From assembly GCA_021799595.1 (NCBI GenBank), contig JAJZAF010000001.1, positions 20,328 through 84,327 on the forward strand: DNA of 64,000 nt, in the 5' to 3' direction. This document shows positions 3,979 through 63,638 of the stretch, piece after piece. This stretch comes from a bacterium. Its GTDB lineage: Bacteria > Patescibacteriota > Saccharimonadia > Saccharimonadales > UBA4665. The position numbers and the translations under genes were made by a program. Position 1 is the stretch's first letter. Every line of letters begins with the position of its first letter. The notes under the pieces are model-generated. The model was given only the letters and a program-made list of their open reading frames with translations, was not told the origin of the DNA and ran no database searches.

Positions 3979-5442
3979 ATGCCTGTTAAACAGCCGATCG
4001 GAGACATTGCCGTTATTGGTATGGCTGTCATGGGACAAAACATCATCTTAAACATGAACGATCATGGCTTTACAGTAGTTGCTTTTAATCGTACTGTCAG
4101 CAAGGTTGATGATTTTCTGGCAGGTGCTGCAAAAGGGACAAAGATTATAGGCGCTCATAGTGCCGAGGAAATGACTGCGCACCTGAAAAGACCGCGTCGG
4201 GTTATGTTAATGGTGAAAGCTGGTCAACCAGTTGATGAGACAATCGATCACATTCTGCCTTTTCTAGAAAAAGGTGACATTATTATTGACGGTGGTAATT
4301 CTCTTTTTACAGATACTATAAGACGGCAGCAAGAACTAGCCACCAAAGGGCTACTCTATATAGGAGCAGGTATTTCTGGCGGAGAAGACGGTGCTAGGCA
4401 CGGTCCATCAATCATGCCGGGAGGGTCAATCGAGGCCTGGCCACACGTCAAAGACATTTTCCAAGCTATTGCCGCCAAATTAGATGATGGAACTCCTTGT
4501 TGCGATTGGATGGGTAACGGTGGTGCTGGCCACTACGTTAAGATGGTTCATAATGGTATTGAGTATGGCGATGAGCAACTTATTTGTGAAGCCTACCAGT
4601 TGATGCGCAATTATCTAAAGTTGCCAGTTATGCAAATAGCAGATATTTTTAGCGAATGGAACAAAGGTGAGCTTGACAGTTATCTCATTGAAATTACTGC
4701 CGACATTCTTAAAGCCAAGGACAGTGATGGCCAACCACTAATAGACAAAATACTTGATACGGCAGGGCAGAAAGGGACCGGCAAGTGGACGGTTATTAAT
4801 GCCGTTGAGCTCGGCCAACCCGCCACTCTTATTAGTGAAGCTTTGTTTGCTCGCTTTACCTCAACACTAAAAGAACAGCGTCAGACAGCCGAGAAAATTT
4901 TAATGGGCACTGCTATAAAGGCACCATCAGACGCAAGTAGCTTTATTGAGCAGTTACGTAGGGCGCTCTATGCCAGCAAGATCGTCAGCTACAGCCAAGG
5001 CTACATGATGCTCATGGCTGCAGCCACAGAATATAGTTGGAAACTTGAATATGCCAACATCGCAACAGTCTGGCGCGGTGGCTGTATAATTCGGAGTCGG
5101 TTTTTAGAAGACATTGCGAAAGCCTATCAAAGAAATAGCAACCTTACTAACTTGATGATTGATCCATTTTTTACTAAAGCTCTTGTAGAGCACCAGGCTG
5201 CCTGGCGATCAGTTGTATCGACCGCCGTCATTACAGGCATCCCTGTACCTGCTATGTCTAGCGGTCTAGCATTTTATGACGCCTATCGTTCTAGTCAGCT
5301 GCCAGCAAATCTTCTGCAGGCCCAGCGTGACTACTTCGGTGCCCATACTTATGAACGCATCGACAAGCCTCGAGGTGAATTCTTTCATACTAACTGGACT
5401 GGTCATGGTGGCAAAACGAGTTCAAGTACTTACAATGCCTAA
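3979..5442 (+). CDS. gnd: 6-phosphogluconate dehydrogenase (decarboxylating)
   Basis: IGMAVMGQNIILNM (NADP fold), GISGGEDGARHGPSIMPGG, MVHNGIEYGDEQLICEAY and QAQRDYFGAHTYER. The ORF opens at 3922, but ATG 3979 (MPVKQPIGDIAVIG) gives the canonical N-terminus. Confidence 0.9.
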   Translation: MPVKQPIGDIAVIGMAVMGQNIILNMNDHGFTVVAFNRTVSKVDDFLAGAAKGTKIIGAHSAEEMTAHLKRPRRVMLMVKAGQPVDETIDHILPFLEKGDIIIDGGNSLFTDTIRRQQELATKGLLYIGAGISGGEDGARHGPSIMPGGSIEAWPHVKDIFQAIAAKLDDGTPCCDWMGNGGAGHYVKMVHNGIEYGDEQLICEAYQLMRNYLKLPVMQIADIFSEWNKGELDSYLIEITADILKAKDSDGQPLIDKILDTAGQKGTGKWTVINAVELGQPATLISEALFARFTSTLKEQRQTAEKILMGTAIKAPSDASSFIEQLRRALYASKIVSYSQGYMMLMAAATEYSWKLEYANIATVWRGGCIIRSRFLEDIAKAYQRNSNLTNLMIDPFFTKALVEHQAAWRSVVSTAVITGIPVPAMSSGLAFYDAYRSSQLPANLLQAQRDYFGAHTYERIDKPRGEFFHTNWTGHGGKTSSSTYNA

Positions 5443-7380: not shown

Positions 7381-8346
7381 TCAGGCTAAAGGCATAGTCA
7401 TCTGGAAAAGCTGTCGTCGCACACAAATCATGAATGCAGAAGCTCCAAAAACTAGCATCAGCCAGTAACTAACCAACCTATATAAGAGAGCTATCGCCAA
7501 AGCTGGCGAACTGGCGACTCCGTACACTAAAAAGGCTGCCACCAAACCCGCCTCAAAGCCACCAAGTCCGCCGGGTGTAGGTGTTACCGTGCCTGCACTA
7601 AGACCAATAGTGAAAATAATGACTGTGGCAATGAGCGAAAGATGTACGCCCAAAGCGTTTGCACAGAAATGAAAACAGAAGATATTTGCACTTGTAAGAA
7701 GCATCGATGAAATAAGCGCAGCCAATATACGTAATGGTCGTTTTGAATAATTACGAAGCTGCAAAGCAATATTTCTTAAAAGCATCAAGACGCGGTGGCG
7801 AGCTACAACAAAAGCAATACAGAGGATCATTAAAACGATTGTCAAAACAAGCCACAAGACTCCCAAGCCATGGCGTTCAGAACTTAATATCAGTTTTTGA
7901 TTTGCTGCTGAGGATGAAACGATAATGAAGACAACTATAAGAAAATGCCCAAATAAACCGAGTATATTATTGACAGCAATGACGGTAGCAGCTTGTGTCG
8001 TGTTATGTTGCCGGTGTCGTAGATAAGTATAATTAGCACCGAGAGCACCAACTCCGGCCGGCAGCAAACGATTAATGAGCATGGCAGCAAACTCTACTGT
8101 GACAACCTCCAGATAATGAAGACGATAAAAAGCAAGCAAACAGTAGGTTAGTGCTGCAAAAAAATAGGTGAGCAGGGTGGCTATAATTGCCAACACCAAC
8201 CAGCTTAAACGAGCTTGGCTAAGCAAATGCCAACTACTACTAAAGACTGATAACTGCGGCACCAAAACGTATAATGCAAACAGCAACAATACTGCAATGA
8301 GGAGGTTGCGCCAGCGCAAAAACGGCGACTTATAGGCTGTTGGCAT
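7381..8346 (-). CDS. UPF0104 / lysylphosphatidylglycerol-synthase-TM-region-like (flippase-like) membrane protein
   Basis: Polytopic protein. TPTPGGLGGFEAGLV resembles the conserved P.GGlG..E motif of this family. Confidence 0.5.
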   Translation of the reverse strand: MPTAYKSPFLRWRNLLIAVLLLFALYVLVPQLSVFSSSWHLLSQARLSWLVLAIIATLLTYFFAALTYCLLAFYRLHYLEVVTVEFAAMLINRLLPAGVGALGANYTYLRHRQHNTTQAATVIAVNNILGLFGHFLIVVFIIVSSSAANQKLILSSERHGLGVLWLVLTIVLMILCIAFVVARHRVLMLLRNIALQLRNYSKRPLRILAALISSMLLTSANIFCFHFCANALGVHLSLIATVIIFTIGLSAGTVTPTPGGLGGFEAGLVAAFLVYGVASSPALAIALLYRLVSYWLMLVFGASAFMICVRRQLFQMTMPLA

Positions 8347-8439
8347 CGTAAGTTATTATATATGCTCTGTCGAAAATCTTACGTTCATATAATTTGATGT
8401 ATGGTTTAATGACTAAAAACTAATAACGTAATACGTAAT

Positions 8440-9396
8440 ATGGGTAGATCGTCTGTGGCAGGCGCTAGTAAAGGACTTCATTACACACGTAAAATTATGT
8501 GGCAGTGCGTTATATGGGTGATTCTCTATATAGCACTCATATTTATCTTGCCACCAAACGTGGCTACAATGACACGCTACCACTTGAGCGCTCTTGCCTA
8601 TAAGGTGGCAACAACGACACTTGCTTTACCAGAATTAGCCTCCTGGCTTGCCGCATTTTGGGGCTATAGTAAGCTCAAAAGCTATGCATCTGTCATCGCT
8701 GCCAGTAGAGATAATACCAGTTTTCATCGTCTCGCTCTTGGGGGAGCATGGTTAGCGTGGAGCCTTCCTATCACTGCTACCCTAAAGTTAATTTTTGGCG
8801 CCATGACCACTACTAGCCAGCCTGGATTTCATTCGGCCAGTGTCATTATATATACCTATGTAGCACTTGTTTTTGCATGTATTGCTTTCAGTTTCATTGC
8901 GCAGTCCGCAAAAGATATAGCCAGCTTTTACCGTATTCACATCAGCCTGAAGAGTTCTCGCTTGATTATGCTTATTTTTCTCCTGTTTGGCATATTGTAT
9001 TGCTTTTTAATCTTTCAGCATTTGACGCCGCTTAATTTGACGAGCGCTCATAATCCGTACTTCCTTCCCGTTTGGCTACTCATTATTAGCGTGACCATTC
9101 CGTACCTCTACGCCTGGTTTATCGGGTTATTATCAGCCTATCAAATACTACTGACAAGCTACCGAGTTCATGGTCTGCTCTATGCTAAGGCGCTGCAACT
9201 ACTCATCATTGGTCTCATGATTGTGATCGTCAGTTTTATAGGATTGCAGTACGTAACAAGCGTTGTACCACAAAATTACGATGTTGTATTTAACTTACAG
9301 TTACTCATAGGTCACGCTGTTCGTATTATCAATGCAATCGGTTTTCTCACTATAGCCCTCGGAGCCAATAAATTGAAAAGGATCGAGGAGGTCTAA
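8440..9396 (+). CDS. multi-pass membrane protein, unknown function
   Basis: Long ORF with repeated hydrophobic helices. It is the first gene of an overlapping run (9396, 9668) that leads into a histidine kinase. The start could also be ATG 8497. Confidence 0.55.
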   Translation: MGRSSVAGASKGLHYTRKIMWQCVIWVILYIALIFILPPNVATMTRYHLSALAYKVATTTLALPELASWLAAFWGYSKLKSYASVIAASRDNTSFHRLALGGAWLAWSLPITATLKLIFGAMTTTSQPGFHSASVIIYTYVALVFACIAFSFIAQSAKDIASFYRIHISLKSSRLIMLIFLLFGILYCFLIFQHLTPLNLTSAHNPYFLPVWLLIISVTIPYLYAWFIGLLSAYQILLTSYRVHGLLYAKALQLLIIGLMIVIVSFIGLQYVTSVVPQNYDVVFNLQLLIGHAVRIINAIGFLTIALGANKLKRIEEV

Positions 9397-47558: not shown

Positions 47559-47633
47559 TCCGGGGTAGCTCAGCGGTAGAGCGGGGCGCTGTTAACGCTT
47601 AGGTCGCTGGTTCGAATCCAGTCCCCGGAGCCA
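47559..47633 (+). tRNA. tRNA-Asn: tRNA-Asn (anticodon GTT), CCA encoded
   Basis: I folded the cloverleaf by hand. Acceptor stem TCCGGGG/CCCCGGA, D arm GCTC-AGCGGTA-GAGC, anticodon stem GGGCG/CGCTT with loop CTGTTAA, T arm GCTGG-TTCGAAT-CCAGT, discriminator G, then CCA. Confidence 0.95.
47608..47633 (+). repeat. 26-bp direct repeat, copy 1 (3' end of tRNA-Asn); att site
   Basis: TGGTTCGAATCCAGTCCCCGGAGCCA is identical to 49052-49077. Confidence 0.95.
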
Positions 47634-49044: not shown

Positions 49045-50559
49045 TTATTGTTGGTTCGAATCCAGTCCCCGGAGCCATTCTGAACGTTCATTGCATGAAG
49101 CTATTGTATTAAACGGACTGTAAAGGGTTAATTCGACCTTTTTACCGTCCAAAAACAGGTTCGAGCCTAATAAGCCCAATAATTCCCGTTTTTCGTCGGG
49201 GTTAGAACCGATAAATAGCTCTCGGCCACGGGCAGCGATTTCCAACAGATACGCTACAGTAATGTAATACTGCTCGTCGGCCTTTGATAACTTACTCAGC
49301 TTACGCTCATGCTGCTTCTGTTCAGCTCGCCACTTGGCTCTCTTTTTGTCATATTCTGCCTGAGTAATACTACCGTCGCACTTATCCTCGTAGGCTATTT
49401 CTATACGCTTTTCTAGTTTTGCTATTTCAGTGTTGTGATAGTTGAATTGCTCACGATTGAACTGCACCTTGCCGCTATGAGCCTCTTTTAGGGTCTTTTC
49501 GAGCCTTGGCAGCTCATCTTCGGGCAGTTTACACTCGTCAAATAACTGAGCAAAGATTTCGGTTAGGTCGGTTTCTGCCATCCAATCCATTTTCGGGTGC
49601 TTACCACGCTTGCCAGTGCAATGGTAATAAGTGTAGGTGTGTACGTTGCCGTTTTTCTGCTTTTTTGTCTTGACCTCGGCAGTTACGGCACAACCACAAG
49701 CCTTGCAGTGCATGAAGCCTCGATAGGTGTGCGGTATGCCAGCATACTTAATCTTTTGCTTGGCATGGCCGTTGATTACATCCTGAACCTGCCAGTATAG
49801 GTCAACAGGCACGATTTGCTCGTAGCTATGGGCGTAGTAGTTGTCTGTTTCCTTGTCATAAATCTCGCCAATATAGAAGCGGTTTTTAAGTATCACGCCA
49901 ATAGCGCTCCAGTGTATATGCACTTTGTAGTCGGACATGATGCGCTGCGACAGGGTCTTATACGAAAAAGTGCCAGTGGCGTAGAGTTCGAACATCTTTA
50001 GCACGACTTTGGCTTTGAATGGTACGGCCACGACAGTTTTGTGGCGCTTATCTACTTCAAGGTTCTGATAGCCAAACGGCGCAAGCCAGGGTAGCTCACC
50101 ATCTCGCAACTTGGCGTATTTGGTATTGAAAGCATCTTCTTTTAAACGGTTTAGCACCTGTTTGGCCAGATAGACTTTGGTGTCCCAGTCAGTAATATCA
50201 CGACCAACTGAACGCTTAGTAATCACGAGCCTATCGTGGACAAAGTGCAATTCTTTATCATATTCCAGCCGCAGGATATCCATCGCAACATGGTCAGCGA
50301 AGTTTCTGGTTGCCCTATCAACTCTGAACGCAATTATTGCTTCGACGTCCTTGTCCTTTTTGACATCGTCCATCATCTCATTGAACTTCTTGCGTATGCC
50401 CGCATCGGCGCTTTCACTAAAAACGTACTCATGGACTATCTCAAAGTCATTCAGCTCGGCATATTCCCGCATCTTAGGGAGTTGGATTTCTTCGAGAGAT
50501 AGACCCTCTTGCTCTTGTCGCTTGGTTGATACTCTTGCTAAGATTACTGCTTTACGCAT
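49045..50559 (-). CDS. large serine recombinase (integrase)
   Basis: N-terminal resolvase domain AVILARVSTKRQEQEGLSLEEIQ with the catalytic Ser. A recombinase domain follows, then a Cys-rich zinc ribbon FMHCKACGCAV...YYHCTG and a coiled-coil tail. The protein is 504 aa. Confidence 0.9.
   Translation of the reverse strand: MRKAVILARVSTKRQEQEGLSLEEIQLPKMREYAELNDFEIVHEYVFSESADAGIRKKFNEMMDDVKKDKDVEAIIAFRVDRATRNFADHVAMDILRLEYDKELHFVHDRLVITKRSVGRDITDWDTKVYLAKQVLNRLKEDAFNTKYAKLRDGELPWLAPFGYQNLEVDKRHKTVVAVPFKAKVVLKMFELYATGTFSYKTLSQRIMSDYKVHIHWSAIGVILKNRFYIGEIYDKETDNYYAHSYEQIVPVDLYWQVQDVINGHAKQKIKYAGIPHTYRGFMHCKACGCAVTAEVKTKKQKNGNVHTYTYYHCTGKRGKHPKMDWMAETDLTEIFAQLFDECKLPEDELPRLEKTLKEAHSGKVQFNREQFNYHNTEIAKLEKRIEIAYEDKCDGSITQAEYDKKRAKWRAEQKQHERKLSKLSKADEQYYITVAYLLEIAARGRELFIGSNPDEKRELLGLLGSNLFLDGKKVELTLYSPFNTIASCNERSEWLRGLDSNQQ
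49052..49077 (+). repeat. 26-bp direct repeat, copy 2 (tRNA-Asn 3' fragment); att site
   Basis: Exact copy of 47608-47633. It lies inside the last 9 codons of the recombinase gene on the opposite strand. Confidence 0.95.
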
Positions 50560-50588: not shown

Positions 50589-51752
50589 TTAATTGTGTTG
50601 AGCGAAGTTAATTAAATAAACGGGTTCGAACTTTTTGAGTTGCTCGCTAAGCTGTTCAAACACTTCCGATTTCTGAGAGCTGTATTTCAGCTTATTATTA
50701 GCTCGTCGAGCCGCTCTAAGCAGCGCTGCGCTACCTTTCGAGCCAACAATGTCCTTTACCGTTCTCGTGCCGCTGTACTGGCTCAGGGTATGCAGCCCAA
50801 CAGCGCTCAGTATCGTTGAAACTTGACGATTCGGGTTCTGAAAATACAGGTCGCCGAACAGTTCCAGCGGGTCGGTAGTCGCAGCTTCTGTTATCTTCGG
50901 ATAGTGGTCATACATATCCTTTAGCTGCCATTCCAGTACTGCCTTTGAGCCGGTTTTACTGTAAAGCGCCACAAAGGTCGTGTTATCTGTCGGCAGCTGA
51001 GCATTACGAAGCGCCTGTTGTATAGCTTTAACGTTGCCCAGCCTGACTTCCATTCGCAGTACCTCAAACGGTTGCTGCATGATATTATCATCGAAAAGAT
51101 TGAGCTGGATTTGACCAACATCCTTATCGAAAATAGGCTGCCTGCGCCTTGCTTTGGTATATTCGGCAAGCTTATCGTAAAACGCCAGTTCGAAGTACTT
51201 AGAGTGGCTCTTGAAGCCATGCCCATTATTTATATAGTCAGTCTTGCTAGCATCACGCCAGCCATTCACGTCTATACGACTTAAATCCTTAATTGCGGCA
51301 TGAGCCGAGAGGTAGCCGCTCAGCACAAAGTTTTTGGAGTAGTGAATTGTTACCACTTGGGCATTTGCAATTGTTGGCACGCCGCCCCGAACCTTAACCT
51401 TGTAGTATGCAAGTCCGTCGTAAATACGCTGGCATATATCGTCAAAATCGCTTTCCTCAATTTCATCGAAGTTATTGCCATTGAGTAACTTAGGTACAGA
51501 CAGTTGAATACGTAAGCCTGTCGTCAATCCGCTAGCTCGCAAGGCTCTATAGAGCGTCAAATAGGGTAGGTATCCTTGCTTTACGGTATCCGCTTTAGAC
51601 GGATTGCACTTAGCGTCAAAATACTTATTGCGGCCCATGTCGTAGGCTGTAGCGCCTTGAATTTTCGTAGCGTTTGGCGTGAACCTGTTAGGCTCTAAAA
51701 TCGCATAGCTAGACGCTGGCAGGGTAAGCACTATCGTATCTATTCCGACCAT
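50589..51752 (-). CDS. putative replication initiation protein (phage/plasmid gene II/X-like)
   Basis: N-terminus MVGIDTIVLTLP, CNPSK and VLRMEVRLGN are reminiscent of the rep_II_X / Rep_trans families. This is a weak, motif-only assignment. Confidence 0.35.
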   Translation of the reverse strand: MVGIDTIVLTLPASSYAILEPNRFTPNATKIQGATAYDMGRNKYFDAKCNPSKADTVKQGYLPYLTLYRALRASGLTTGLRIQLSVPKLLNGNNFDEIEESDFDDICQRIYDGLAYYKVKVRGGVPTIANAQVVTIHYSKNFVLSGYLSAHAAIKDLSRIDVNGWRDASKTDYINNGHGFKSHSKYFELAFYDKLAEYTKARRRQPIFDKDVGQIQLNLFDDNIMQQPFEVLRMEVRLGNVKAIQQALRNAQLPTDNTTFVALYSKTGSKAVLEWQLKDMYDHYPKITEAATTDPLELFGDLYFQNPNRQVSTILSAVGLHTLSQYSGTRTVKDIVGSKGSAALLRAARRANNKLKYSSQKSEVFEQLSEQLKKFEPVYLINFAQHN

Positions 51753-52011
51753 TTTTCACTACATCTTCAAACTTAGTTATTACTGCGTCATGAATTTGCT
51801 GACCCGCATCCCTCGAAATGGGATGGAATACGTCGAGTTGGCGACCAGCTATTTTTCTAGTCGGGTACAGAAGCCTATAATCGCCGTTTGGTCGGCTCAT
51901 GATACCAACCGAGCCACAATAGATTGAGCCATTGATAACGAAGCTAGCGAACGCTACAAGGCCGTTCTGCGGCTTAACAACGGCTATTTCAACCTCGCTA
52001 ATTTCCAGCAT
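51709..52011 (-). CDS. SpoVG-like nucleic-acid-binding protein
   Basis: MLEISEVEIAVVKPQNGLVAFASFVINGSIYCGSVGIMSRPNGDYRLLYPTRKIAGRQLDVFHPISRDAGQQIHDAVI follows the SpoVG pattern (V.....G.L.A.AS...N..F.I..I.V....G......P.........D..HPI....R..I..AV). The start is taken at ATG 52011. Confidence 0.6.
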   Translation of the reverse strand: MLEISEVEIAVVKPQNGLVAFASFVINGSIYCGSVGIMSRPNGDYRLLYPTRKIAGRQLDVFHPISRDAGQQIHDAVITKFEDVVKNGRNRYDSAYPASV

Positions 52012-52180
52012 TGCAGCGCTCTTTCTTTTTACGTTGGTCAACTTTTATGAGAATTTCTAGTAAACGAGCCATGCGACGCAATTCAGCATCAGACCATAAC
52101 GGCTGCTGGTTCTTGTCTGGTTCATCACTGCGTGGTCGTCGTACCATGCAGCAGACTATAACTAGGCAACTGTCGGGCAA
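51998..52180 (-). CDS. small hypothetical protein (60 aa)
   Basis: It fills the gap between neighbouring minus-strand genes, with a 14-nt overlap downstream. No homology was recognised. Confidence 0.3.
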   Translation of the reverse strand: MPDSCLVIVCCMVRRPRSDEPDKNQQPLWSDAELRRMARLLEILIKVDQRKKKERCNAGN

Positions 52181-53143: not shown

Positions 53144-53259
53144 TTCTTTAACCTCACTACTTCTTCGCTTTCAGATATTTTACAATCAAAATACCTTTTT
53201 TTCGGCTGCTATTACCTCATTCTTCCCAAAACAACTAGTAAGTCGTGTATAGTTATAGT

Positions 53260-53448
53260 ATGCCACAAAAGGGTAAGAAGTTGCCGCAATTGCTTACGCT
53301 GAAACAAACAAGCAAAATGCTTCAATGTCATCCAAACACTCTTAGAATGTGGGATAAAAATGGCATTTTAAAAGCCGTTCGAATAGGTAGCCGTGGGGAT
53401 CGTCGCTACAACAGGGACGATGTATTAAAAATCATAAAGGATAAGTAA
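53260..53448 (+). CDS. MerR/excisionase-family HTH protein (controller or recombination directionality factor candidate)
   Basis: LLTLKQTSKMLQCHPNTLRMWDKNGILKAVRIGSRGDRRYNRDDV matches the MerR/HTH_17 pattern (TLR.W...G.L...R...G.R.Y...DV). ATG 53260 is preferred over GTG 53245. Confidence 0.65.
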   Translation: MPQKGKKLPQLLTLKQTSKMLQCHPNTLRMWDKNGILKAVRIGSRGDRRYNRDDVLKIIKDK

Positions 53449-53453
53449 GAATA

Positions 53454-55427
53454 GTGGACGACAAAGCACAAAACGGTAATTTACCCGAGCAAAATAGCTT
53501 TTTCAAAATTGATAAGCTAAAGCGTTCTGTTAGAGCGGGAACACAACTTCCTGACCCAAAAATTGAGCCTTATGGCTACGATCCCAACGCCAAGTTTAGG
53601 CACATTTTCCCCGAACTTAACCTACCGCCCCTGTTATCAAATTTGCCCGATGACCACGTTACGTTTGGCCATCCTGAGTTGCCAGACACCACATTATATT
53701 TTGGTGATAACCTTTATGTTTTACGTAATATGCCAAGCGAGAGTGTAGATTTGATATACATTGACCCGCCTTTCTTTAGTAAGCGAGATTACGTGCAAAT
53801 TTGGGGTGACGATAATGAAATTCGTTCATTCCAGGATATTTTTGAAGATGGCATGTTTAGCTATTTAACTTGGCTCAATGCCAGGTTGTGGGAGATGAAA
53901 AGAGTTCTTAAAAATACAGGTAGCATTTACGTACATTGCGATTGGCACGCCAGCCATTACATTAAGGCAGAAATGGACAAAATATTTGGCTACAGCAACT
54001 TCAGGAATGAAATAATCTGGTACTACCCCTCAGGCGGTGGTAGAACAAAAGTCACTTTCAATAGAAAACACGATAGTCTGCTTTGGTATTCAAAAACCGA
54101 TAACTATAAATATCTTATCGACAACATTCGTGTCAGTTATAAAGAGACTTCGATGTACTCCAAATATGGCACAGTTCATCATGGTACTGGCAAAGAGTAT
54201 AAGCCTGATGTCAGTTCGGGTAAAAACCCTGACGATACATGGGAGATGAATATATTAAATCCTACTGCACACGAACGCATTGGCTATCCAACCCAAAAAC
54301 CGCTGGAGGTTGTGCAGAGGATAATTGATGCACATAGTGAGCCAGGTGACGTTGTGGCGGATTTTTTTATGGGCGGCGGTACATTTGGGGCTGCTGCACT
54401 TGGTCAAAGAACTGAAATAGGTGCACCTCTGTCGGGTACGAAGTATTACTATGATAAACCAAGAACTTTTATTGGGTGTGATATTTCTCGTGTTGCTACG
54501 AGTGTGACATTTAATCGTCTAACTGAAGTCTGTGAACAGATGTCTGGCATAACTGCGTCTGAAAAGTCAGGTCAGCAACAACTTGGAGCAGAGCTTGCCA
54601 AAGTGCCTGATATTCGTACCGCTTATGTAGGTAGTTACCCTATTAATAAGTTTGATGGCATAGAACAAAAAGCATTTACTAACTTTGTGATAGGACTATA
54701 TGGTGCAAGCACATACACAGGTGAAGGTGACGAAATAGACGGACTCGTAAATGGCAAGGTTGTTATTTCAGTTGGGCCAGCTAGCCCTTCTGAGCGTGTT
54801 CAGGTCATGAAAGTTAGAAGGGTTCTAGAGCAAGTATTGCGTCAATATAGTAAACAACTTGCTGCTGGCGAGGAAAAGATTATTCAAATAATTGGTTGGT
54901 CTTTTGAACCGTTAGTAGATCGCTGGAAAGGTGACGCTACAAACACCCTAAACAAGCAAGGGTTAAAAGTTACCATAGAGCTTATAAGCCTTAGTAGTGA
55001 GGCATTTCGGCAAAAGATATTTCGTGAGATCGGTGAAAGCAATACAGACTTGAAGTTCAACCGGCTTAATCAGTTGCTGAGTTTTACCAGTACTCCTACA
55101 GCTGGCCATATTACAATAACTAAACAAAGAGGTTTGGAGTGCGAGTTTGCTTTGGTAGGAGCACAGGCGATTGGTGCTGGCGGCAGACTCATAAATGCAC
55201 AGTGGGATTTTGACTATAAAGACAAACGTTTTTCTGATAAAGCTCACGCCCTCAATAGAGCTGGTAAAGCGGGTACTTACGAAGCTGTGCTAAGCGTAAC
55301 TCACAAGTTCGAAAAACCTGGTAAGTATGTTATTGCAGCTAGAGTTCAAGATAACCTAGACGGCGAAGCCGTTACTGTTGCTGAGTTAAGTATAAGTAAT
55401 AGCTCACATGAGCTACAATTATCATAA
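53454..55427 (+). CDS. beta-class N6-adenine/N4-cytosine DNA methyltransferase (Type III Mod-like) with a roughly 310-aa C-terminal extension ending in a PKD-like domain
   Basis: GDNLYVLRNMPSESVDLIYIDPPFF (motif IV DPPF), then YPTQKPLEVVQRII and DVVADFFMGGGTFGAAA (motif I). The IV-before-I order defines the beta class. The tail contains AQWDFDY...THKFEKPGKYVIAARVQDNLDGEA. GTG start. Confidence 0.85.
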   Translation: MDDKAQNGNLPEQNSFFKIDKLKRSVRAGTQLPDPKIEPYGYDPNAKFRHIFPELNLPPLLSNLPDDHVTFGHPELPDTTLYFGDNLYVLRNMPSESVDLIYIDPPFFSKRDYVQIWGDDNEIRSFQDIFEDGMFSYLTWLNARLWEMKRVLKNTGSIYVHCDWHASHYIKAEMDKIFGYSNFRNEIIWYYPSGGGRTKVTFNRKHDSLLWYSKTDNYKYLIDNIRVSYKETSMYSKYGTVHHGTGKEYKPDVSSGKNPDDTWEMNILNPTAHERIGYPTQKPLEVVQRIIDAHSEPGDVVADFFMGGGTFGAAALGQRTEIGAPLSGTKYYYDKPRTFIGCDISRVATSVTFNRLTEVCEQMSGITASEKSGQQQLGAELAKVPDIRTAYVGSYPINKFDGIEQKAFTNFVIGLYGASTYTGEGDEIDGLVNGKVVISVGPASPSERVQVMKVRRVLEQVLRQYSKQLAAGEEKIIQIIGWSFEPLVDRWKGDATNTLNKQGLKVTIELISLSSEAFRQKIFREIGESNTDLKFNRLNQLLSFTSTPTAGHITITKQRGLECEFALVGAQAIGAGGRLINAQWDFDYKDKRFSDKAHALNRAGKAGTYEAVLSVTHKFEKPGKYVIAARVQDNLDGEAVTVAELSISNSSHELQLS

Positions 55428-55429
55428 GC

Positions 55430-57544
55430 ATGATTAGCCAAACCGACATTGATTTTAAGCAATGGATAGAGGCTCCAGACTTTCCAAATATACAAAACGA
55501 CCGAGCCAAATACCATGCAAAAACTTTCGTAGAGCGATTATCTAGTGGCGAGTTTCCAAAGCCACTATATAACCATCAGCAGGAAGCCATTTTGCGAGTT
55601 ATTTTCCATGGCGAAAAGAAGGGCGAATGGGATAGCCTGCTCGACATTGTAACGGGCGGAGGTAAAACAGTTGTCATGGCCGCTTTAGTTGCCTACTTCT
55701 GGCAAGTGCACGGTATAGAGAAGTTCCTCGTTTTGACACCAAACACCATAGTTAGAGAACGAGTAAAAGATGACTTTGAGCCAAATAATCCAGGCTTTGC
55801 ATATAATGACTTCCCTCTATTCTTCAATTCATTTACGAACATACCTCGCAACATAGTTACAAAAGTTCTGCGAGGGCAAGGCGATGAAGCGTCTGTAAAA
55901 GATGCAAATGTAATAGTTGCTAACATCCATCAGCTTTATGAGGGTCGAGAAGCCCTTGAACTGCTACTGGCCGACAACATTACACCGAGCCTAGTTGTTT
56001 TTAATGACGAGGCGCATAACGCTTCAGCAGATAAGTACCGAGAGGTGCTAAAGCTGCTTAAACGTAAAATCCACGCACGCATAGATTTAACAGCCACACC
56101 CTTTAGGCTAGATAGACGTGACTTGGATACTTACCCGCCCGTATACGAATATCATATAGAGCAAGCTACGAGAGACGGCATAGTCAAAAATACCCTAGTA
56201 ACCAAACCGGATATAGAAAGTGTACATCTGCAAGTCGAAGAGTGGGATGAGCAGGATAACGTAGTTAGAACGTTGGAAGCCGAGGATGTACCCTGGGAGC
56301 AAATAGAAGCACAGCTAAAAAATGCAGGAGCGGTTAGGTTCGTTACGGCCAAGACCGCTCGGAAACAACAGCTTCAAATTGCTCAAACATGCTTAGAATA
56401 CCAACAAAAAGGCGTACCACTGGATGTTAATGGTCACAGGCAATGGCAGCCACTCATGCTAGTAGTAGCTCTATCGCAAAAAGATGCACAAGCTATATAC
56501 GAGACTCTGCAAAAAGCACCATTTTCTTATAAATCAGAAGAGTTGTTACTGGCACATAGTAATAGGGATGAATACGAGAATAAGAAGGCGTTTCTTTTGG
56601 GGCGAAAAAGTCCGGCAGGCTTAGAAGCTCAAGATGCCGCATTATGGAAGCAAACTCGCAAAGTGAGAGTAATAGTTGGGATAAGCATGTTGCGTGAAGG
56701 CTGGGACGTACAAACAATCAGCGTAATCTGCCTGTTCAGGAAGTTTAGTTACCAGAAAAAAGGCGACCAAATCTACACCATCTACGGACCTCAAATCATT
56801 GGACGTGGCTTACGTAAAATAAGGTCAGGAAAACAGATTGACCACTTGTTTGTTATAGACCATCCGGCCTTCAACCACGACTGGCTTTGGCAGCTCATGG
56901 CTGCTCAGCAGTATAGTAGGCCGTTAAATCCAGGCGACGATGTTGAAGATGATGTTATAGAAAAGATGGATAGTATGTTCGAAAATGAGCAACAAAATGC
57001 CGAACCGCCTGTCGGCGAAACAGGCGAAGAGCTTGATGTTGATAAAATTATGGCCAGCTTGCCCGATCTACCAGAAGTCGAGCCAATGAAAGAATGGCAG
57101 GCGTATTTTGAAGGACTAAAACTCAACACTAGGATTGCCAATGCTGTTCAGAAAATAGTTAATCTGAAAACAAAATCTGTAATATCTGCTAACACAGCAC
57201 ATGAGATACCAGACGCAGAGCTTAATAAGCCAGAACTAGTACAAAATTTATATGAGGCCGAAAACAAGAGCCGTGAGGCGATACTTGCCGAAGTTAGAGC
57301 TGATATTGATGAAGCTCCACGCCAAGCTCTCTACAGCTCATTTAGGCAAATGAATGCAGAACAACTACTCGCTATGAATAACGGGCTATCTTGGATATTC
57401 GATAAAAAGTTTGGCATAAAGCAACTTGATCATGCCACTGACGCACAACTGCTTAAACTGCATTTTGCACTACCACAAGTTTTAGAAGAATATCAAAAAC
57501 CCGAAGTGGTCTTAGGCATACTAGAAACATATGGTGCAGAGTAA
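55430..57544 (+). CDS. SF2 helicase, Type III restriction Res-subunit-like (ResIII plus helicase C), without a recognisable nuclease domain
   Basis: Motif I VTGGGKTVVMAA, motif II VVFNDEAHN, motif III DLTATP, motif VI GISMLREGWDV. The C-terminal ~200 aa are acidic and helical. Confidence 0.8.
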   Translation: MISQTDIDFKQWIEAPDFPNIQNDRAKYHAKTFVERLSSGEFPKPLYNHQQEAILRVIFHGEKKGEWDSLLDIVTGGGKTVVMAALVAYFWQVHGIEKFLVLTPNTIVRERVKDDFEPNNPGFAYNDFPLFFNSFTNIPRNIVTKVLRGQGDEASVKDANVIVANIHQLYEGREALELLLADNITPSLVVFNDEAHNASADKYREVLKLLKRKIHARIDLTATPFRLDRRDLDTYPPVYEYHIEQATRDGIVKNTLVTKPDIESVHLQVEEWDEQDNVVRTLEAEDVPWEQIEAQLKNAGAVRFVTAKTARKQQLQIAQTCLEYQQKGVPLDVNGHRQWQPLMLVVALSQKDAQAIYETLQKAPFSYKSEELLLAHSNRDEYENKKAFLLGRKSPAGLEAQDAALWKQTRKVRVIVGISMLREGWDVQTISVICLFRKFSYQKKGDQIYTIYGPQIIGRGLRKIRSGKQIDHLFVIDHPAFNHDWLWQLMAAQQYSRPLNPGDDVEDDVIEKMDSMFENEQQNAEPPVGETGEELDVDKIMASLPDLPEVEPMKEWQAYFEGLKLNTRIANAVQKIVNLKTKSVISANTAHEIPDAELNKPELVQNLYEAENKSREAILAEVRADIDEAPRQALYSSFRQMNAEQLLAMNNGLSWIFDKKFGIKQLDHATDAQLLKLHFALPQVLEEYQKPEVVLGILETYGAE

Positions 57545-57998
57545 ACGTGGCAAACTAACCAATTTAAAAAAGAGTGTAGCCACATCGGAAACATTTGACT
57601 CCTTACTTGAACGTGACTACATGTTAGAACTTGAACATAATCCAGCCGTCAAATCTTGGACAAAACAACATAAAATAAAGATCCCTTATTCAATCTTTGG
57701 TATCAGACGCAATTACTTGCCCGACTTTCTTATTACTTTCCAAAATGGCCAGCAAGAGTTACATGAAACAAAGGGGGCTGGTTTTCTAACGTGGCTGTCT
57801 ACTTATCGTAAAAGGATTGCTGGCGACCACTGGGCTAAAACGCACGGAATGAAGTATAGGTTTATAGAAAACTCTAATGGCGCTTTATTTGGCACGAACA
57901 TGGCAATTGAAAGTGCTGTTAAAGGCAAGGAATACTCCAGCATTGACGAGCTAATGGCTAAAGAAGGACCTGATGAAAAAGGCAATACTACACAATAG
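57531..57998 (+). CDS. stand-alone PD-(D/E)xK nuclease, TnsA N-terminal-domain-like
   Basis: SLLERDYMLELEHNPAVKSW, YLPDFLITF, QELHETKG and a KYRFIEN tail follow the TnsA_N pattern (E ... PDF ... E.K). It overlaps the helicase stop by 14 nt. Confidence 0.65.
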   Translation: MVQSKRGKLTNLKKSVATSETFDSLLERDYMLELEHNPAVKSWTKQHKIKIPYSIFGIRRNYLPDFLITFQNGQQELHETKGAGFLTWLSTYRKRIAGDHWAKTHGMKYRFIENSNGALFGTNMAIESAVKGKEYSSIDELMAKEGPDEKGNTTQ

Positions 57999-58683
57999 AT
58001 TGGTTTTGCTATGGGCTAATCCTACACGAGAAAAATTAAAAAAATTTTACGCATCAACTGGCATTTTTAATGATAAGGACGATGCTCAAAATCTAATAAA
58101 GTTCGGGGCTTACTTAATTTTTAATGGGCATAGACAGTCGGAGGATGAAAAGCCTTATGATAGTACTATTGGATTAAATAATTGGGTTAACAGTTTAGAG
58201 GGTTATATTTTGTTTCACGTAGGTACGGAGTATTTTTTGAAGGGAGTTTTCTTGTATAAAGGGTATGCAATAAACAAACTTAAAAAAATATACTCACTGC
58301 CAGAACCCTATAAAATTGCAAGAAATCATCGTAAACTTGACGCTTCGGAAACGCACACCTTTGGCTACTTTACCAAAAACATCACAAAAATAGTTGATTT
58401 TACTGAGTTTGACAAACAGCAAAGTTCCAAAAATAAGATATACAAAGGCAAAAAACCAGTAGGGATTATATCTACGAGGTTTAAGCACCCCAATCATGAA
58501 CAGTTACTTTATTACCTGCAGTTTTCAAGAAATAAATATCTTCATACAAGAAGAAAGATACCAGAATTTAAGGGCATAACTGATGACGTTATGGAATTGT
58601 TGAACTTTATTAGTGTCTATGTTTGTCAAAAAAATATTGAAGCACTTAGTGACTTAGAGAAAATAAGCGTTGAGAACTCTTAG
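57973..58683 (+). CDS. hypothetical protein with a HEPN-like RNxxxH motif
   Basis: 236 aa with GAAGGA 5 nt upstream of the ATG. LYYLQFSRNKYLHTRRK contains R-N-x3-H (Rx4H), the canonical HEPN active-site motif. The sequence is visibly A/T-rich. Confidence 0.35.
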   Translation: MKKAILHNRLVLLWANPTREKLKKFYASTGIFNDKDDAQNLIKFGAYLIFNGHRQSEDEKPYDSTIGLNNWVNSLEGYILFHVGTEYFLKGVFLYKGYAINKLKKIYSLPEPYKIARNHRKLDASETHTFGYFTKNITKIVDFTEFDKQQSSKNKIYKGKKPVGIISTRFKHPNHEQLLYYLQFSRNKYLHTRRKIPEFKGITDDVMELLNFISVYVCQKNIEALSDLEKISVENS

Positions 58684-58687
58684 CTAT

Positions 58688-58999
58688 ATGAGCGACGATA
58701 TAAAACCCGAAGACAAAAGAAGAATGTATAAAAGCATATTTGTAGACACTGCTAAAGCTATGGCTCTAGCGCTCATTGCGTTTGCTGTATTGCTGTGGTT
58801 TTATAAAAACCAAATTTCAGTAAGTAGCCCATCAATAATCATAGGAGTAATCGGGACTGTATTGATATTTATTGGTGGCATGATGATTAGCGATGCATTA
58901 GGTAGGTATGGGGCTAAAGGACTGCCGCAATTTACATGGGGAGCAAGAATGCAAAGCATGGGGCTGGGCTTTATAATTGTTGCTCTCTTGATCAAATAG
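58688..58999 (+). CDS. small three-TM membrane protein
   Basis: MSDDIKPEDKRRMYKS followed by three hydrophobic helices. ATG 58688 lies 4 nt after the upstream stop. The ORF also opens at TTG 58670. Confidence 0.5.
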   Translation: MSDDIKPEDKRRMYKSIFVDTAKAMALALIAFAVLLWFYKNQISVSSPSIIIGVIGTVLIFIGGMMISDALGRYGAKGLPQFTWGARMQSMGLGFIIVALLIK

Positions 59000-61748: not shown

Positions 61749-63638
61749 CTACCTCTTTTGGCTTTTTTGACGACGAATAATTGCTCGATCAATTCCAAGA
61801 AGTACAGCAGCACCCCCCAGCCCGCCTATAACCAGCCACCAATTAATACTGTGTTGTAGTGGATCTTTGGCAACTGACATTGGGTGGGTTTGAGTACTTG
61901 TATTATTCAAGTAGCTTGCTAATGCTACGCTATTTCCTGCTCCTATCAGACCGCTATTACTGGGGTCACCTGATGTTGTATTAAGTGCTATACAATATTG
62001 ATTACTAGATTGTTGTCCTTGACCAGAAGTAGCTGCCGGGTTAAAAATAACAAGCGCAGGCAGAGTAATATTTTTGGACTCGGTCGAAGAAAGTACCGAT
62101 ACAGCATTGGAGGTTAAAGGTGCAGCTGAATCATTATACAGCCCAAGGCTACCATACCAATTGCCAAGAACATTGATAAAGAGAATACCAAACCAGCCAC
62201 TCAGATCGAATTGATCACCAAGGAAGTTAACAATATTAGCTTCTGCCAATGCATCACCACTGGTAGCATTACCGCCGACACCATTACCGGATACTATGGC
62301 ATTGCCGCTGTCGGCGCTCAACGTTATATAGTTATTGATTGTCTCGGTATTATTGCTGGTCACATTACTATTGGACGGCAAACAAACAGAAGAGCTATTG
62401 CCTCCATCGAGAAGAGCAATATTAGAATTGTCAGAGCTATTTAGTATAAAGCCGGTCCATGTTCCAGCCACATTGACAATAACAAGCAGAGCATTCGATG
62501 CAATGACCTGGCTTCCAGTCAAGTTATAGATAGTTAAGTCAGTCGTGGCGTTTCCGCTGCTAGCATTACCGCCAACACCATTATTAGTAACGAGAGCTTG
62601 GCCTGATTGGGCAAGGAGCGCAACCTGGTTATTAATCGTAAAGTTGTTATTTAAGGTTACGAGACTGGGCTTGCTCTCGCCTTGATTGGTGGGGGGAGAG
62701 TTATTCAATAATGAGTCAACAAGCTGCTGAGGGATTAATATGTTGCCGACGACATTCCCATTAACGGTAACCGTACCAATAACATTGATAAGATTAGCCA
62801 GCGCTTCAGCCGTTCCACTGGTAGCATCTCCCCCAACACCATTTGACGTTACCGATGCATTACCACTATCCGCACTCACGGTAGCGGTATTATTAATAGA
62901 AGCATTGTTCGTAGAGGAAGTATCCGTAACAGACGAGCCAGAACTAGATGATCCATTTTGTTCAGCCAGCGAGACAGGATTTATGGTAATATTACCATTC
63001 ACATTCCCGTTGACGGTGTAGGTAAACGTCAGAGGCTGGTTACTCGACGAAGTATTATTGATCTGATTAATAAGATTTAGTTCGCCTTCAGAAGACCCGC
63101 TCGTTGCATCACCACCGACATTGTTTTGTGTGACAGTAGCATTGCCTGATTGAGAATTCAAGGCATCATTATTATTAATTGTAGCTGTATTCGCACTGTT
63201 TGATGTATCGCCTGGTGTATTACTTGATGAGCTAGGGGACACAAGAGAAGAGCTAGAATTGTTAGAATTGTCATTTGTTACTGGCTGTGTCGTTGTTGAA
63301 GGGGTAGAGCTAGAAACAGGATAATTATCTAGGTTGTTGTTAGTCGGAGATGGGGAAGAAGTAGTAGTCCCTGAGGTCTCACTTGTCCCACCAGAACCGC
63401 TTTGAGCAGTTTGTGTGTTTGTTGAGTCTGTACTTACTGAAGAGTTATTTGTCGCTACATTAGATATGCAGCTGCTTGGTGTCACATTGTTAGACGACTG
63501 ACATACATTGTCTGCAAATACATACTCAGGTCGACTGACAGCCAGAGCGACAAAGATAAATAAAAGACTGCCTGCAATCGACGACTTAGTTCGAACGAGT
63601 TTCATTATAACCTTTGGGTAATTCATATCATATTTCAT
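61749..63638 (-). CDS. large S/T/N-rich surface protein with four internal repeat modules and a C-terminal TM anchor
   Basis: N-terminal signal/TM (IAGSLLFIFVALAVS). There are four modules of the type SGNA.V..N.VGG(D/N)A(T/S)SG........(I/V/Y)N. The C-terminus is WWLVIGGLGGAAVLLGI plus a basic tail RRQKSQKR. Confidence 0.7.
   Translation of the reverse strand: MKYDMNYPKVIMKLVRTKSSIAGSLLFIFVALAVSRPEYVFADNVCQSSNNVTPSSCISNVATNNSSVSTDSTNTQTAQSGSGGTSETSGTTTSSPSPTNNNLDNYPVSSSTPSTTTQPVTNDNSNNSSSSLVSPSSSSNTPGDTSNSANTATINNNDALNSQSGNATVTQNNVGGDATSGSSEGELNLINQINNTSSSNQPLTFTYTVNGNVNGNITINPVSLAEQNGSSSSGSSVTDTSSTNNASINNTATVSADSGNASVTSNGVGGDATSGTAEALANLINVIGTVTVNGNVVGNILIPQQLVDSLLNNSPPTNQGESKPSLVTLNNNFTINNQVALLAQSGQALVTNNGVGGNASSGNATTDLTIYNLTGSQVIASNALLVIVNVAGTWTGFILNSSDNSNIALLDGGNSSSVCLPSNSNVTSNNTETINNYITLSADSGNAIVSGNGVGGNATSGDALAEANIVNFLGDQFDLSGWFGILFINVLGNWYGSLGLYNDSAAPLTSNAVSVLSSTESKNITLPALVIFNPAATSGQGQQSSNQYCIALNTTSGDPSNSGLIGAGNSVALASYLNNTSTQTHPMSVAKDPLQHSINWWLVIGGLGGAAVLLGIDRAIIRRQKSQKR
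62200..63160. repeat. four divergent in-frame repeat modules (about 80-110 aa each)
   Basis: The module cores are QSGNATVTQNNVGGDATSGSSEGELNLINQI, DSGNASVTSNGVGGDATSGTAEALANLINVI, QSGQALVTNNGVGGNASSGNATTDLTIYNL and DSGNAIVSGNGVGGNATSGDALAEANIVNFL. Confidence 0.7.

Follow-up and report, generated by a model that had tools for sequence, protein, structure and literature searches.

A methyltransferase-helicase-nuclease gene triad read as a Type III-like restriction-modification system with a split Res subunit, and a portable companion gene, in a Saccharimonadales bacterium

Do six tightly packed genes in the genome of a Saccharimonadales bacterium form one defence system, or do separate modules lie side by side? 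The question arises from a window of 64,000 nt (the whole stretch of DNA that was analysed; assembly GCA_021799595.1, contig JAJZAF010000001.1, positions 20,328-84,327 of the forward strand), whose host belongs to Patescibacteriota; Saccharimonadia; Saccharimonadales; UBA4665 in GTDB. Six open reading frames (ORFs) on the + strand, numbered g1 to g6 from 5' to 3' and given here in window coordinates, encode a MerR/excisionase-type helix-turn-helix (HTH) protein (g1, 53260-53448, with an alternative GTG start upstream at 53245), a Mod-like beta-class N6A/N4C DNA methyltransferase (MTase; g2, 53454-55427), a superfamily 2 (SF2) ATP-dependent DNA motor of ResIII type (g3, 55430-57544), a stand-alone PD-(D/E)xK endonuclease of TnsA-N/RE_endonuc type with 155 aa (g4, 57531-57998), an alpha-helical protein of a rare family carrying the motif F-x-R-[ND]-x-x-x-H (g5, 57973-58683) and a small orphan membrane protein (g6, 58688-58999, with an alternative TTG start upstream at 58670). 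Counted from the ATG starts, the spacings from g1 to g6 are +5, +2, -14, -26 and +4 nt. A preliminary description, made from the sequence alone, had proposed the six genes as a single, undescribed restriction or abortive defence system. Its ORFs and spacings are all present in the ORF list of the window, every motif that it quoted (DPPF, YPTQKP, FFMGGGTFG, GGGKT, FNDEAHN, LTATP, MLREGWDV, SLLE, YLPDF, HETKG and RNKYLH) occurs in the translations, and its domain calls for g1 to g4 were reproduced by a Pfam scan. Its view of the whole gives way to a different one: the locus probably consists of two independent defence modules on a serine-recombinase integrative element, namely the triad g2-g4, best read as an ATP-dependent restriction-modification (R-M) system that resembles Type III but whose Res is split, and the portable gene g5, perhaps together with g6.

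The triad recurs far beyond the window. A scan with a helicase profile over one genome per GTDB species gave 562 confirmed relatives, of which the best 80 loci were fetched and, together with one Rhodanobacteraceae chromosome, searched by tblastn with the six window proteins. The order MTase-helicase-nuclease on one strand was found in 77 of 79 other loci, the two exceptions being a contig of 1.9 kb and a locus cut by a contig end, and a g2 homologue lies upstream of the helicase wherever the contig extends far enough. The supposed co-occurrence of helicase and nuclease genes across genomes is thus confirmed by this comparison of neighbourhoods. Hosts of the triad within the Candidate Phyla Radiation (CPR) are Gracilibacteria, Paceibacterota, Saccharibacteria, Nealsonbacteria and Woykebacteria; other bacterial hosts include many Dehalococcoidia/Chloroflexota as well as Bacteroidota, Planctomycetota, Verrucomicrobiota, Nitrospinota, Armatimonadota and Alpha-, Gamma- and Deltaproteobacteria, and archaeal hosts are Thermoplasmata, Woesearchaeota and Hydrothermarchaeota. 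The helicase g3 gave no match in plasmid or phage collections.

The remaining genes of the cluster are not part of this recurrence. No homologues of g1, g5 or g6 were detected by tblastn in the 80 other helicase loci, relatives being confined to contigs of the same strain, and all-vs-all clustering of flanking and gap ORFs from the related loci returned no recurrent fourth gene beside the triad; its top cluster consists of antisense ORFs within the MTase gene, and no other cluster occurs in more than four loci. Because g1, g5 and g6 do not accompany the triad elsewhere, the conserved unit comprises three genes, not six. Homologues of g5 instead trail unrelated restriction systems, and the proposal of a single six-gene system fails on both counts. 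That all six genes nevertheless form one obligate restriction/abortive system, in which the RNxxxH and membrane proteins would be integral effectors triggered by the Mod, helicase and nuclease, is quite improbable: the partners of g5 in other loci (Type I, Type II and Mrr-like systems) share no subunit with the triad, g5 is an outlier in GC content (32.8% vs 40-43% for g2-g4 and a window mean of 44%), which is consistent with a separate origin, and g6 is without relatives. The tight same-strand packing with overlaps of -14 and -26 nt speaks for the obligate system, as does the equally tight packing of g5 homologues onto other restriction operons, which makes co-expression likely. The 26-nt overlap of g4 and g5 in the window also weighs against two independent modules, as it may reflect a functional link specific to this element. 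The same arrangement of element and cluster recurs in three assemblies of this organism that are independent of one another. Since a consensus scan of the cluster for promoter and terminator signals found none above shuffled expectation and was uninformative, the claim of one operon is based solely on gene spacing.

Within the triad, motor and nuclease are encoded by separate genes, as the preliminary description had observed for the window. Separate ORFs encode the two proteins in each of the 77 loci that yielded both, and in none (0/77) are they fused; the helicase and nuclease genes typically overlap by 11 or 14 nt (-14 in the window). More than 1,145 homologues of g3 were retrieved, and the near-full-length ones among the 120 listed measure about 680-720 aa, a size from which it follows that none of these has an added nuclease domain. 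Conversely, at least 1,423 clusters (90% identity) came from a search with a nuclease profile, and each of the best 120 is a stand-alone protein with a length of about 115-128 aa; such homologues of g4 bear the name "TnsA endonuclease N-terminal domain-containing protein" at NCBI and, occasionally, "type III restriction enzyme" at JGI. Judged from these comparisons of sequences, the split between helicase and nuclease is real and ancient. An origin by frameshift or pseudogene formation was rejected, the split being kept in 77/77 loci with characteristic overlaps and uniform family lengths. Likewise, a nuclease concealed in the C-terminus of g3 was considered and dismissed on the secondary structure of an AlphaFold2 (AF2) model and the lack of a match to any nuclease family. 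In this model, which has a predicted local distance difference test score (pLDDT) of 74.7, RecA2 is followed by a disordered acidic linker (residues 492-535), a beta-hairpin and four helices (615-701), and no alpha/beta nuclease core was found in the C-terminal 210 aa. A separate observation concerns a locus from Candidatus Gracilibacteria (L005, 8001-10500), where translation with table 11 gives a helicase ORF of 405 aa and a broken nuclease ORF, while the tblastn alignments are full-length; the fragmentation is probably due to recoding of UGA as a sense codon (code 25) and not to pseudogenisation.

The MTase g2 matches Pfam N6_N4_Mtase over aa 98-346 (E=1.9e-46), and its motif order, with DPPF (about aa 104) before FxGxG (about aa 303), is that of the beta class. 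It carries a C-terminal extension of about 310 aa that is conserved in the family (tblastn alignments cover about aa 10-647) and is a candidate recognition or assembly domain. The motor g3 matches Pfam ResIII (E=6.8e-25), and Walker A (GGGK), NDEAHN, TATP and the arginines of motif VI are invariant in its family; in Foldseek searches the AF2 model matched RadD (1.6e-13), EcoP15I Res (1.4e-11) and EcoR124I HsdR (2.9e-11). Among PDB sequences, the helicase profile gave only a weak HsdR match. As for g4, the match to Pfam Tn7_TnsA-like_N (E=6.8e-8) lies above the cut-off, and that to RE_endonuc falls just short of it (23.0 vs 23.4 bits). Over 26 diverse members of the g4 family, all of which match Tn7_TnsA-like_N and 21 of which match RE_endonuc (PF19778), the residues E27, P64-D65-F66 and E79-x-K81 are invariant and, read from the alignment, constitute a canonical PD-(D/E)xK site. 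Against PDB sequences, the g4 profile returned only marginal matches, to the PD...ExK core of NlaIV and TnsA. Members of the family range from 116 to 155 aa, the window copy and its closest relatives having a short C-terminal tail, and it is the region of this tail that the start of g5 overlaps.

Given its name-giving Pfam family, g4 could be suspected of serving the mobility of the element as a nuclease for transposition or homing that lies beside the helicase gene only incidentally. The best Pfam family of g4 is indeed Tn7_TnsA-like_N, the NCBIfam model TnsA_like_Actin matches 24 of the 26 family members, and the locus lies on a mobile element. Still, this explanation is hardly credible: genes of the TnsB/TniB/TniQ type are missing from the related loci, unlike in a true Tn7-like element (L095), the proteins of only about 116 aa have no TnsA C-terminal domain, and the gene is always coupled to the helicase stop codon, whatever the mobile element or chromosome. 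TnsA of Tn7 itself combines an N-terminal nuclease with a C-terminal domain and works with TnsB/TnsC-type partners, in contrast to g4, which represents the nuclease core only and is without such partners. Two plasmid matches to g4 were followed up and discarded as unrelated TnsA-domain proteins, one of them located in L095 and the other standing alone.

A link from the split proteins to fused restriction enzymes is provided by NF046055 (BPTD_3080 family restriction endonuclease, 970 positions), a family in which helicase and nuclease form a single fused protein, as opposed to the two genes of the triad. This model was matched by 16 of 16 helicases and 26 of 26 nucleases tested and is the most consistent NCBIfam match of both the g3 and the g4 family, as well as the best one of g3 and g4 themselves; the window copies align to it collinearly, g3 at about 571-618 (motif VI) and g4 at about 848-924. 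Because the scores of 48 bits (g3) and 34 bits (g4) remain far below the cut-off of 800 bits, the kinship to the fused Res is distant and one of shared architecture, not of membership. In Type III systems, the SF2 helicase motifs and a C-terminal PD-(D/E)xK endonuclease domain reside in one and the same Res chain. Mod belongs to the beta class of amino-MTases, in which motif IV comes before motif I, and carries a target-recognition domain (TRD); ATP-dependent cleavage requires two inversely oriented, unmethylated asymmetric sites, and host DNA is hemimethylated. The triad resembles these systems (EcoP15I/EcoP1I; Mod2Res1) in the mod gene that lies upstream of, adjacent to and co-oriented with the motor gene, in the beta-class amino-MTase, in the SF2 ResIII-type motor whose model matches EcoP15I Res, and in a nuclease of RE_endonuc type, such as Res carries at its C-terminus. 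It differs from them in that every locus encodes the nuclease as a polypeptide of its own (116-155 aa), in the C-terminal extension of g2, which takes the place of a large internal TRD, and in the weak and partial matches of the PADLOC Type III REase models. Two findings in particular weigh against the Type III-like reading: first, the low NF046055 scores given above, and second, the character of the g2 core, which is far nearer to Type II beta enzymes than to Type III Mods (nearest solved structure M.RsrI at 1.1e-27, as compared with 1.1e-8 for EcoP15I Mod) and has no large internal TRD. Since there is no single helicase-nuclease polypeptide and Mod is atypical, the triad is filed as a variant of Type III and not as a member.

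Starting from the gene order, the split and the catalytic residues as observed, we infer complex formation, specificity and cleavage as follows. The MTase g2 would recognise the target and methylate host DNA. The motor g3 would bind g2 and, by analogy with EcoP15I Res and HsdR, use ATP for long-range communication along the DNA from unmethylated sites, either by sliding as in Type III or by translocation as in Type I enzymes. Finally, g4, which is translationally coupled to g3, would probably dock on the C-terminal helical domain of the motor and cut the DNA. A different account takes the triad not for a classical cleaving R-M system but for one of methylation-based exclusion in the manner of BREX or DISARM, or for a modification-dependent or repair-type helicase and nuclease with an independent MTase. 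In its favour are the Type II-like core of g2, which could work alone, the repair helicase RadD as best structural match of g3, and the best PADLOC match of g3, PbeA, which is a component of a different kind of system. We regard it as improbable, however, as the MTase is linked in nearly every locus where the contig reaches, which points to a modification/restriction pair, g3 and g4 are both nearest to a model of a fused restriction endonuclease, the catalytic residues of g4 are invariant, and the BREX/DISARM markers PglZ, BrxC, DrmB and PLD did not turn up in the flanks of the triad. As an observation on locus architecture, a gap of 0.6-1.9 kb separates the MTase and helicase genes in L012, L014, L018, L019, L022, L047, L060 and others, and a gene of about 120 aa within this gap is common to L033, L039 and L046; there may be sub-variants with an extra small subunit.

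How does the triad relate to systems that have already been named? In a profile-level scan with the PADLOC hidden Markov models (HMMs), the best models on g2 were of Type II, accompanied by generic MTase_II/III matches, g3 was best matched by PbeA (weakly) with weak and partial REase_III matches, and g4 to g6 matched no model. No marker set results, in line with the earlier statement that the layout matches none of the gene sets of BREX, DISARM, Hachiman, Gabija, Zorya or Druantia; the marker sets of BREX, DISARM, MADS and others are unmatched, and what g1 to g3 do match are generic MTase models, weak PbeA/REase_III models and the HTH model mad1. The related claim of an undescribed defence system has to be narrowed, as the triad is best taken for a Type III-like R-M variant in which a subunit is split, not for a defence system of an entirely new category. 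Neither a split-Res Type III system nor BPTD_3080 was found described in the searchable literature, the coverage of which excludes REBASE. Precedent for an atypical, three-component division of labour is given by Type III systems producing N4-methylcytosine (m4C), in which an extra helicase/ATPase gene precedes mod on the 5' side, the endonuclease domain remaining within Res (Murray et al. 2021, PMC8259958); in the triad, by contrast, the third gene is the nuclease itself. MANTIS, or Gao_RL, a BREX-related system acting on asymmetric sites, also combines methyltransferase, ATPase and nuclease for defence, yet its four genes encode an AAA+ ATPase, a co-regulator, a methyltransferase and a fused helicase-nuclease effector, an architecture that does not match g2-g4 (bioRxiv 10.64898/2026.09.23.753747).

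If the Type III-like reading is true, a large fraction of the "orphan" beta-class MTases beside "DEAD/DEAH helicases" and "TnsA-domain proteins" would be complete restriction systems that current annotation and HMMs of the PADLOC type miss. Sets of this kind occur commonly among uncultivated lineages (CPR, Dehalococcoidia, Planctomycetota and some archaea). The triad is notable for its breadth over uncultivated bacteria and archaea and for its invisibility to routine annotation, and is apparently uncharacterised. A naturally split Res would moreover allow the nuclease to be titrated, mutated and swapped apart from the motor, which would help to study motor licensing in Type III-like enzymes. 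A bolder version, which we consider possible but doubtful, holds that the triad represents a class of ATP-dependent R-M systems in its own right, not characterised so far and very widespread in bacteria and archaea (at least 1,400 nuclease clusters). A motor that translocates or slides would here recruit a free nuclease of about 116 aa in trans, with a cleavage logic possibly unlike that of Type I and Type III. In this version g5, independently, would found a family of new-fold effectors with a catalytic R[ND]xxxH, which would back up any restriction system they are attached to, possibly via the small membrane protein encoded after g5.

The second module, g5, belongs to a very small family. 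An exhaustive HMMER search returned 15 representatives among 1.84 billion proteins and a profile search 49 clusters at 90% identity; the few relatives with a source name come from WWE3, Woesebacteria, Shapirobacteria and one metagenome-assembled Pedobacter genome, i.e., mostly from CPR, and a scan of viral contigs found no relatives. The start at position 57973 is supported by an N-terminal LHN motif shared with the homologues. In nine neighbourhoods of g5 homologues (L085-L093), the gene repeatedly trails restriction operons of different types: it follows 8 nt after hsdR-hsdM-hsdS (L086) and 14 nt after hsdM-hsdS-hsdR (L091), both Type I, 5 nt after a pair of Type II MTase and MvaI/BcnI endonuclease (L087) and 53 nt after an FtsK-Mrr_cat-NA-iREase1 protein (L089). 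In L085 it is located in a serine-recombinase element beside a conventional HTH-MTase-Res (952 aa) Type III system, and in L090 in another such element between an Apea-like HEPN gene (E=0.0016) and a HEPN_AbiU2 gene; in L088, L092 and L093 it lies among unknown genes. As the homologues trail unrelated restriction systems and are absent from the other triad loci, g5 travels with any restriction type and is not a component of the triad. Serine recombinases similar to that of the window flank g5 homologues in L085, L086 and L090.

What g5 does is harder to say. The preliminary description had identified it as HEPN-like from the RNKYLH motif. Among the 12 members of the family alignment, F-x-R-[ND]-x-x-x-H is present in all ten that are intact across the region (in the other two, the C-terminus is truncated or frameshifted), and it has the form of the Rx4-6H motif conserved in HEPN proteins; further invariant or near-invariant polar residues are H7, N8, E86, K90, N101 and D147. 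The AF2 model is mainly alpha-helical with a small beta insert (pLDDT 73.9; predicted template modelling score, pTM, 0.76). R-M systems linked with HEPN proteins are an established form of multi-pronged defence with at least 16 clades (Anantharaman et al. 2013, PMC3710099). Like the HEPN proteins of this kind (the PrrC-EcoprrI paradigm), g5 is a small 3' gene of several types of restriction operon, has R-[ND]-x3-H and is predicted to be all-alpha; unlike them, it matches no profile or fold of the HEPN superfamily, the core of which is an up-and-down arrangement of four helices, has no ATPase or sensor domain and belongs to a tiny family. The most likely role of g5, perhaps together with g6, is that of an autonomous second line of defence of the abortive-infection or toxin kind; g5 may be an RNase that works through R[ND]xxxH, and g6 its partner or regulator. 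For this role as a second-line toxin, possibly an RNase, we see about even chances. Several results count against it: the window protein has no Pfam match, and the 12 family members gave nothing in Pfam but one Abi_2 match with E=0.2; Foldseek remained null, with best E values of 2.0 (PDB) and 0.57 (BFVD); with hhalign, three HEPN or HEPN-like proteins from the neighbourhoods were aligned at probabilities below 1%; the motif sits at the C-terminal end of a predicted helix; and a recognisable restriction system is found in only about half of the neighbourhoods examined. A sequence search against PDB likewise found no match. The assignment to HEPN thus shrinks to the motif, as Pfam, hhalign and Foldseek are all without a match.

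The main rival to the toxin function is a regulatory or alleviation role: g5 would then be no nuclease but a regulator, restriction-alleviation or addiction factor with which mobile elements equip whatever restriction operon they carry, for instance to temper restriction upon entry into a new host. It would explain why neither fold nor profile searches showed a similarity to HEPN or other nucleases, a generic role fits partners that are mechanistically unrelated, and the gene is often found on serine-recombinase elements. The conservation of R[ND]xxxH and of the other invariant polar residues, however, suggests an enzyme, HEPN proteins, either recognisable as such or bearing the motif, abound in the neighbourhoods, and no signature of a DNA-binding domain is present, so that we consider this role unlikely. 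The toxin reading would make the g5 family a further case of a restriction system joined by a second-line module, here in mobile elements of CPR bacteria, whose defence repertoire is poorly known. Within the same neighbourhoods, a family of 376/377-aa proteins with 66% identity (L087, 7702-8835; L088, 7707-8837) directly follows the g5 homologues; it has no Pfam match and carries a HEPN-like motif of its own, YKLR[NH][RK]IIHGD. R-x4-H motifs also occur in other neighbours of g5, namely 'VRNPYLH' in L089, 'FRNGLSH' in L091 and 'RRNAIVH' in L090.

The two outer genes of the cluster appear to belong to the element and not to the triad. The HTH protein g1 matches Pfam MerR_1 (E=2.9e-9) and HTH_17 (E=9.2e-9), PADLOC mad1 (E=1.4e-10) and excisionase/regulator families of PHROG, the mad1 match reflecting the HTH alone. 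L085 contains two HTH genes (5068-5265 and 8263-8457), each 60% identical to g1 and each heading a different cargo operon, one consisting of DUF4352, DUF4232 and the g5 homologue and the other of the conventional Type III MTase and the 952-aa Res. Because these copies head cargo operons, g1 would be a transcriptional regulator of cargo, comparable to C-proteins, rather than an excisionase, and it is probably specific to the mobile element and outside the triad; proteins of this type may be standard 'cargo operon leaders' in such serine-recombinase elements. Of the three transmembrane (TM) segments ascribed to g6 in the preliminary description, a Kyte-Doolittle scan shows two as strong hydrophobic segments and one as a weaker one. 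Only sub-threshold Pfam matches and no significant PADLOC, NCBIfam or PHROG matches were obtained for g6, and a metagenome scan found no relatives. Small TM proteins do follow the g5 homologues in L093 (89 aa, 2 TM) and L091 (107 aa, 1 TM), yet the proteins downstream of g5 homologues have no sequence similarity to g6. This is a weak hint at a pairing of g5 with membrane proteins, in which g6 may be the partner of g5.

The mobile context of the cluster is seen to its left. A tRNA-Asn gene (47559-47633, + strand; ARAGORN, Rfam tRNA with 67.4 bits) at the left of the island is the likely integration target. A 26-nt att-like direct repeat (49052-49077, + strand), which abuts the gene of a large serine recombinase, is a perfect copy of its 3' end (47608-47633); two matches to this 3' end were observed vs none expected. 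The recombinase gene (49045-50559, - strand; Pfam Resolvase, Recombinase and Zn_ribbon_recom) extends across the second copy of the repeat. Between the repeats lies an islet of 1.4 kb with a metallophosphoesterase gene and a gene for a ParE-type toxin with a small upstream ORF. To the right of the islet, four genes on the - strand (serine recombinase, a Rep-like protein of rolling-circle type, a SpoVG-like protein and an unknown protein of 315 aa) precede the six-gene cluster. The layout of the repeats suggests tandem or nested integrations at tRNA-Asn, and it is plausible that g1-g6 are carried on the integrated element; its right end was not found, a search for a further copy of the tRNA-Asn 3' end, or for a remnant of one, being negative. 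The Rep-like protein (50589-51752, - strand) has a Phage_CRI/G2P N-terminal domain that is barely above the cut-off (PF05144, E=7.6e-5), and this weak domain together with the SpoVG-like gene (50589-52041 for both, - strand) hints at an integrative plasmid- or phage-like replicon with a probable CPR host. Further to the right, at 61749-63638 on the - strand, a gene encodes a Ser/Thr/Asn/Gly-rich protein of 629 aa with a hydrophobic segment at each terminus. The gene contains degenerate internal repeats, with 64-nt units every 261-297 nt and 66-72% identity, and its product is probably a variable surface protein, as related assemblies carry versions of 629 aa and 640 aa.

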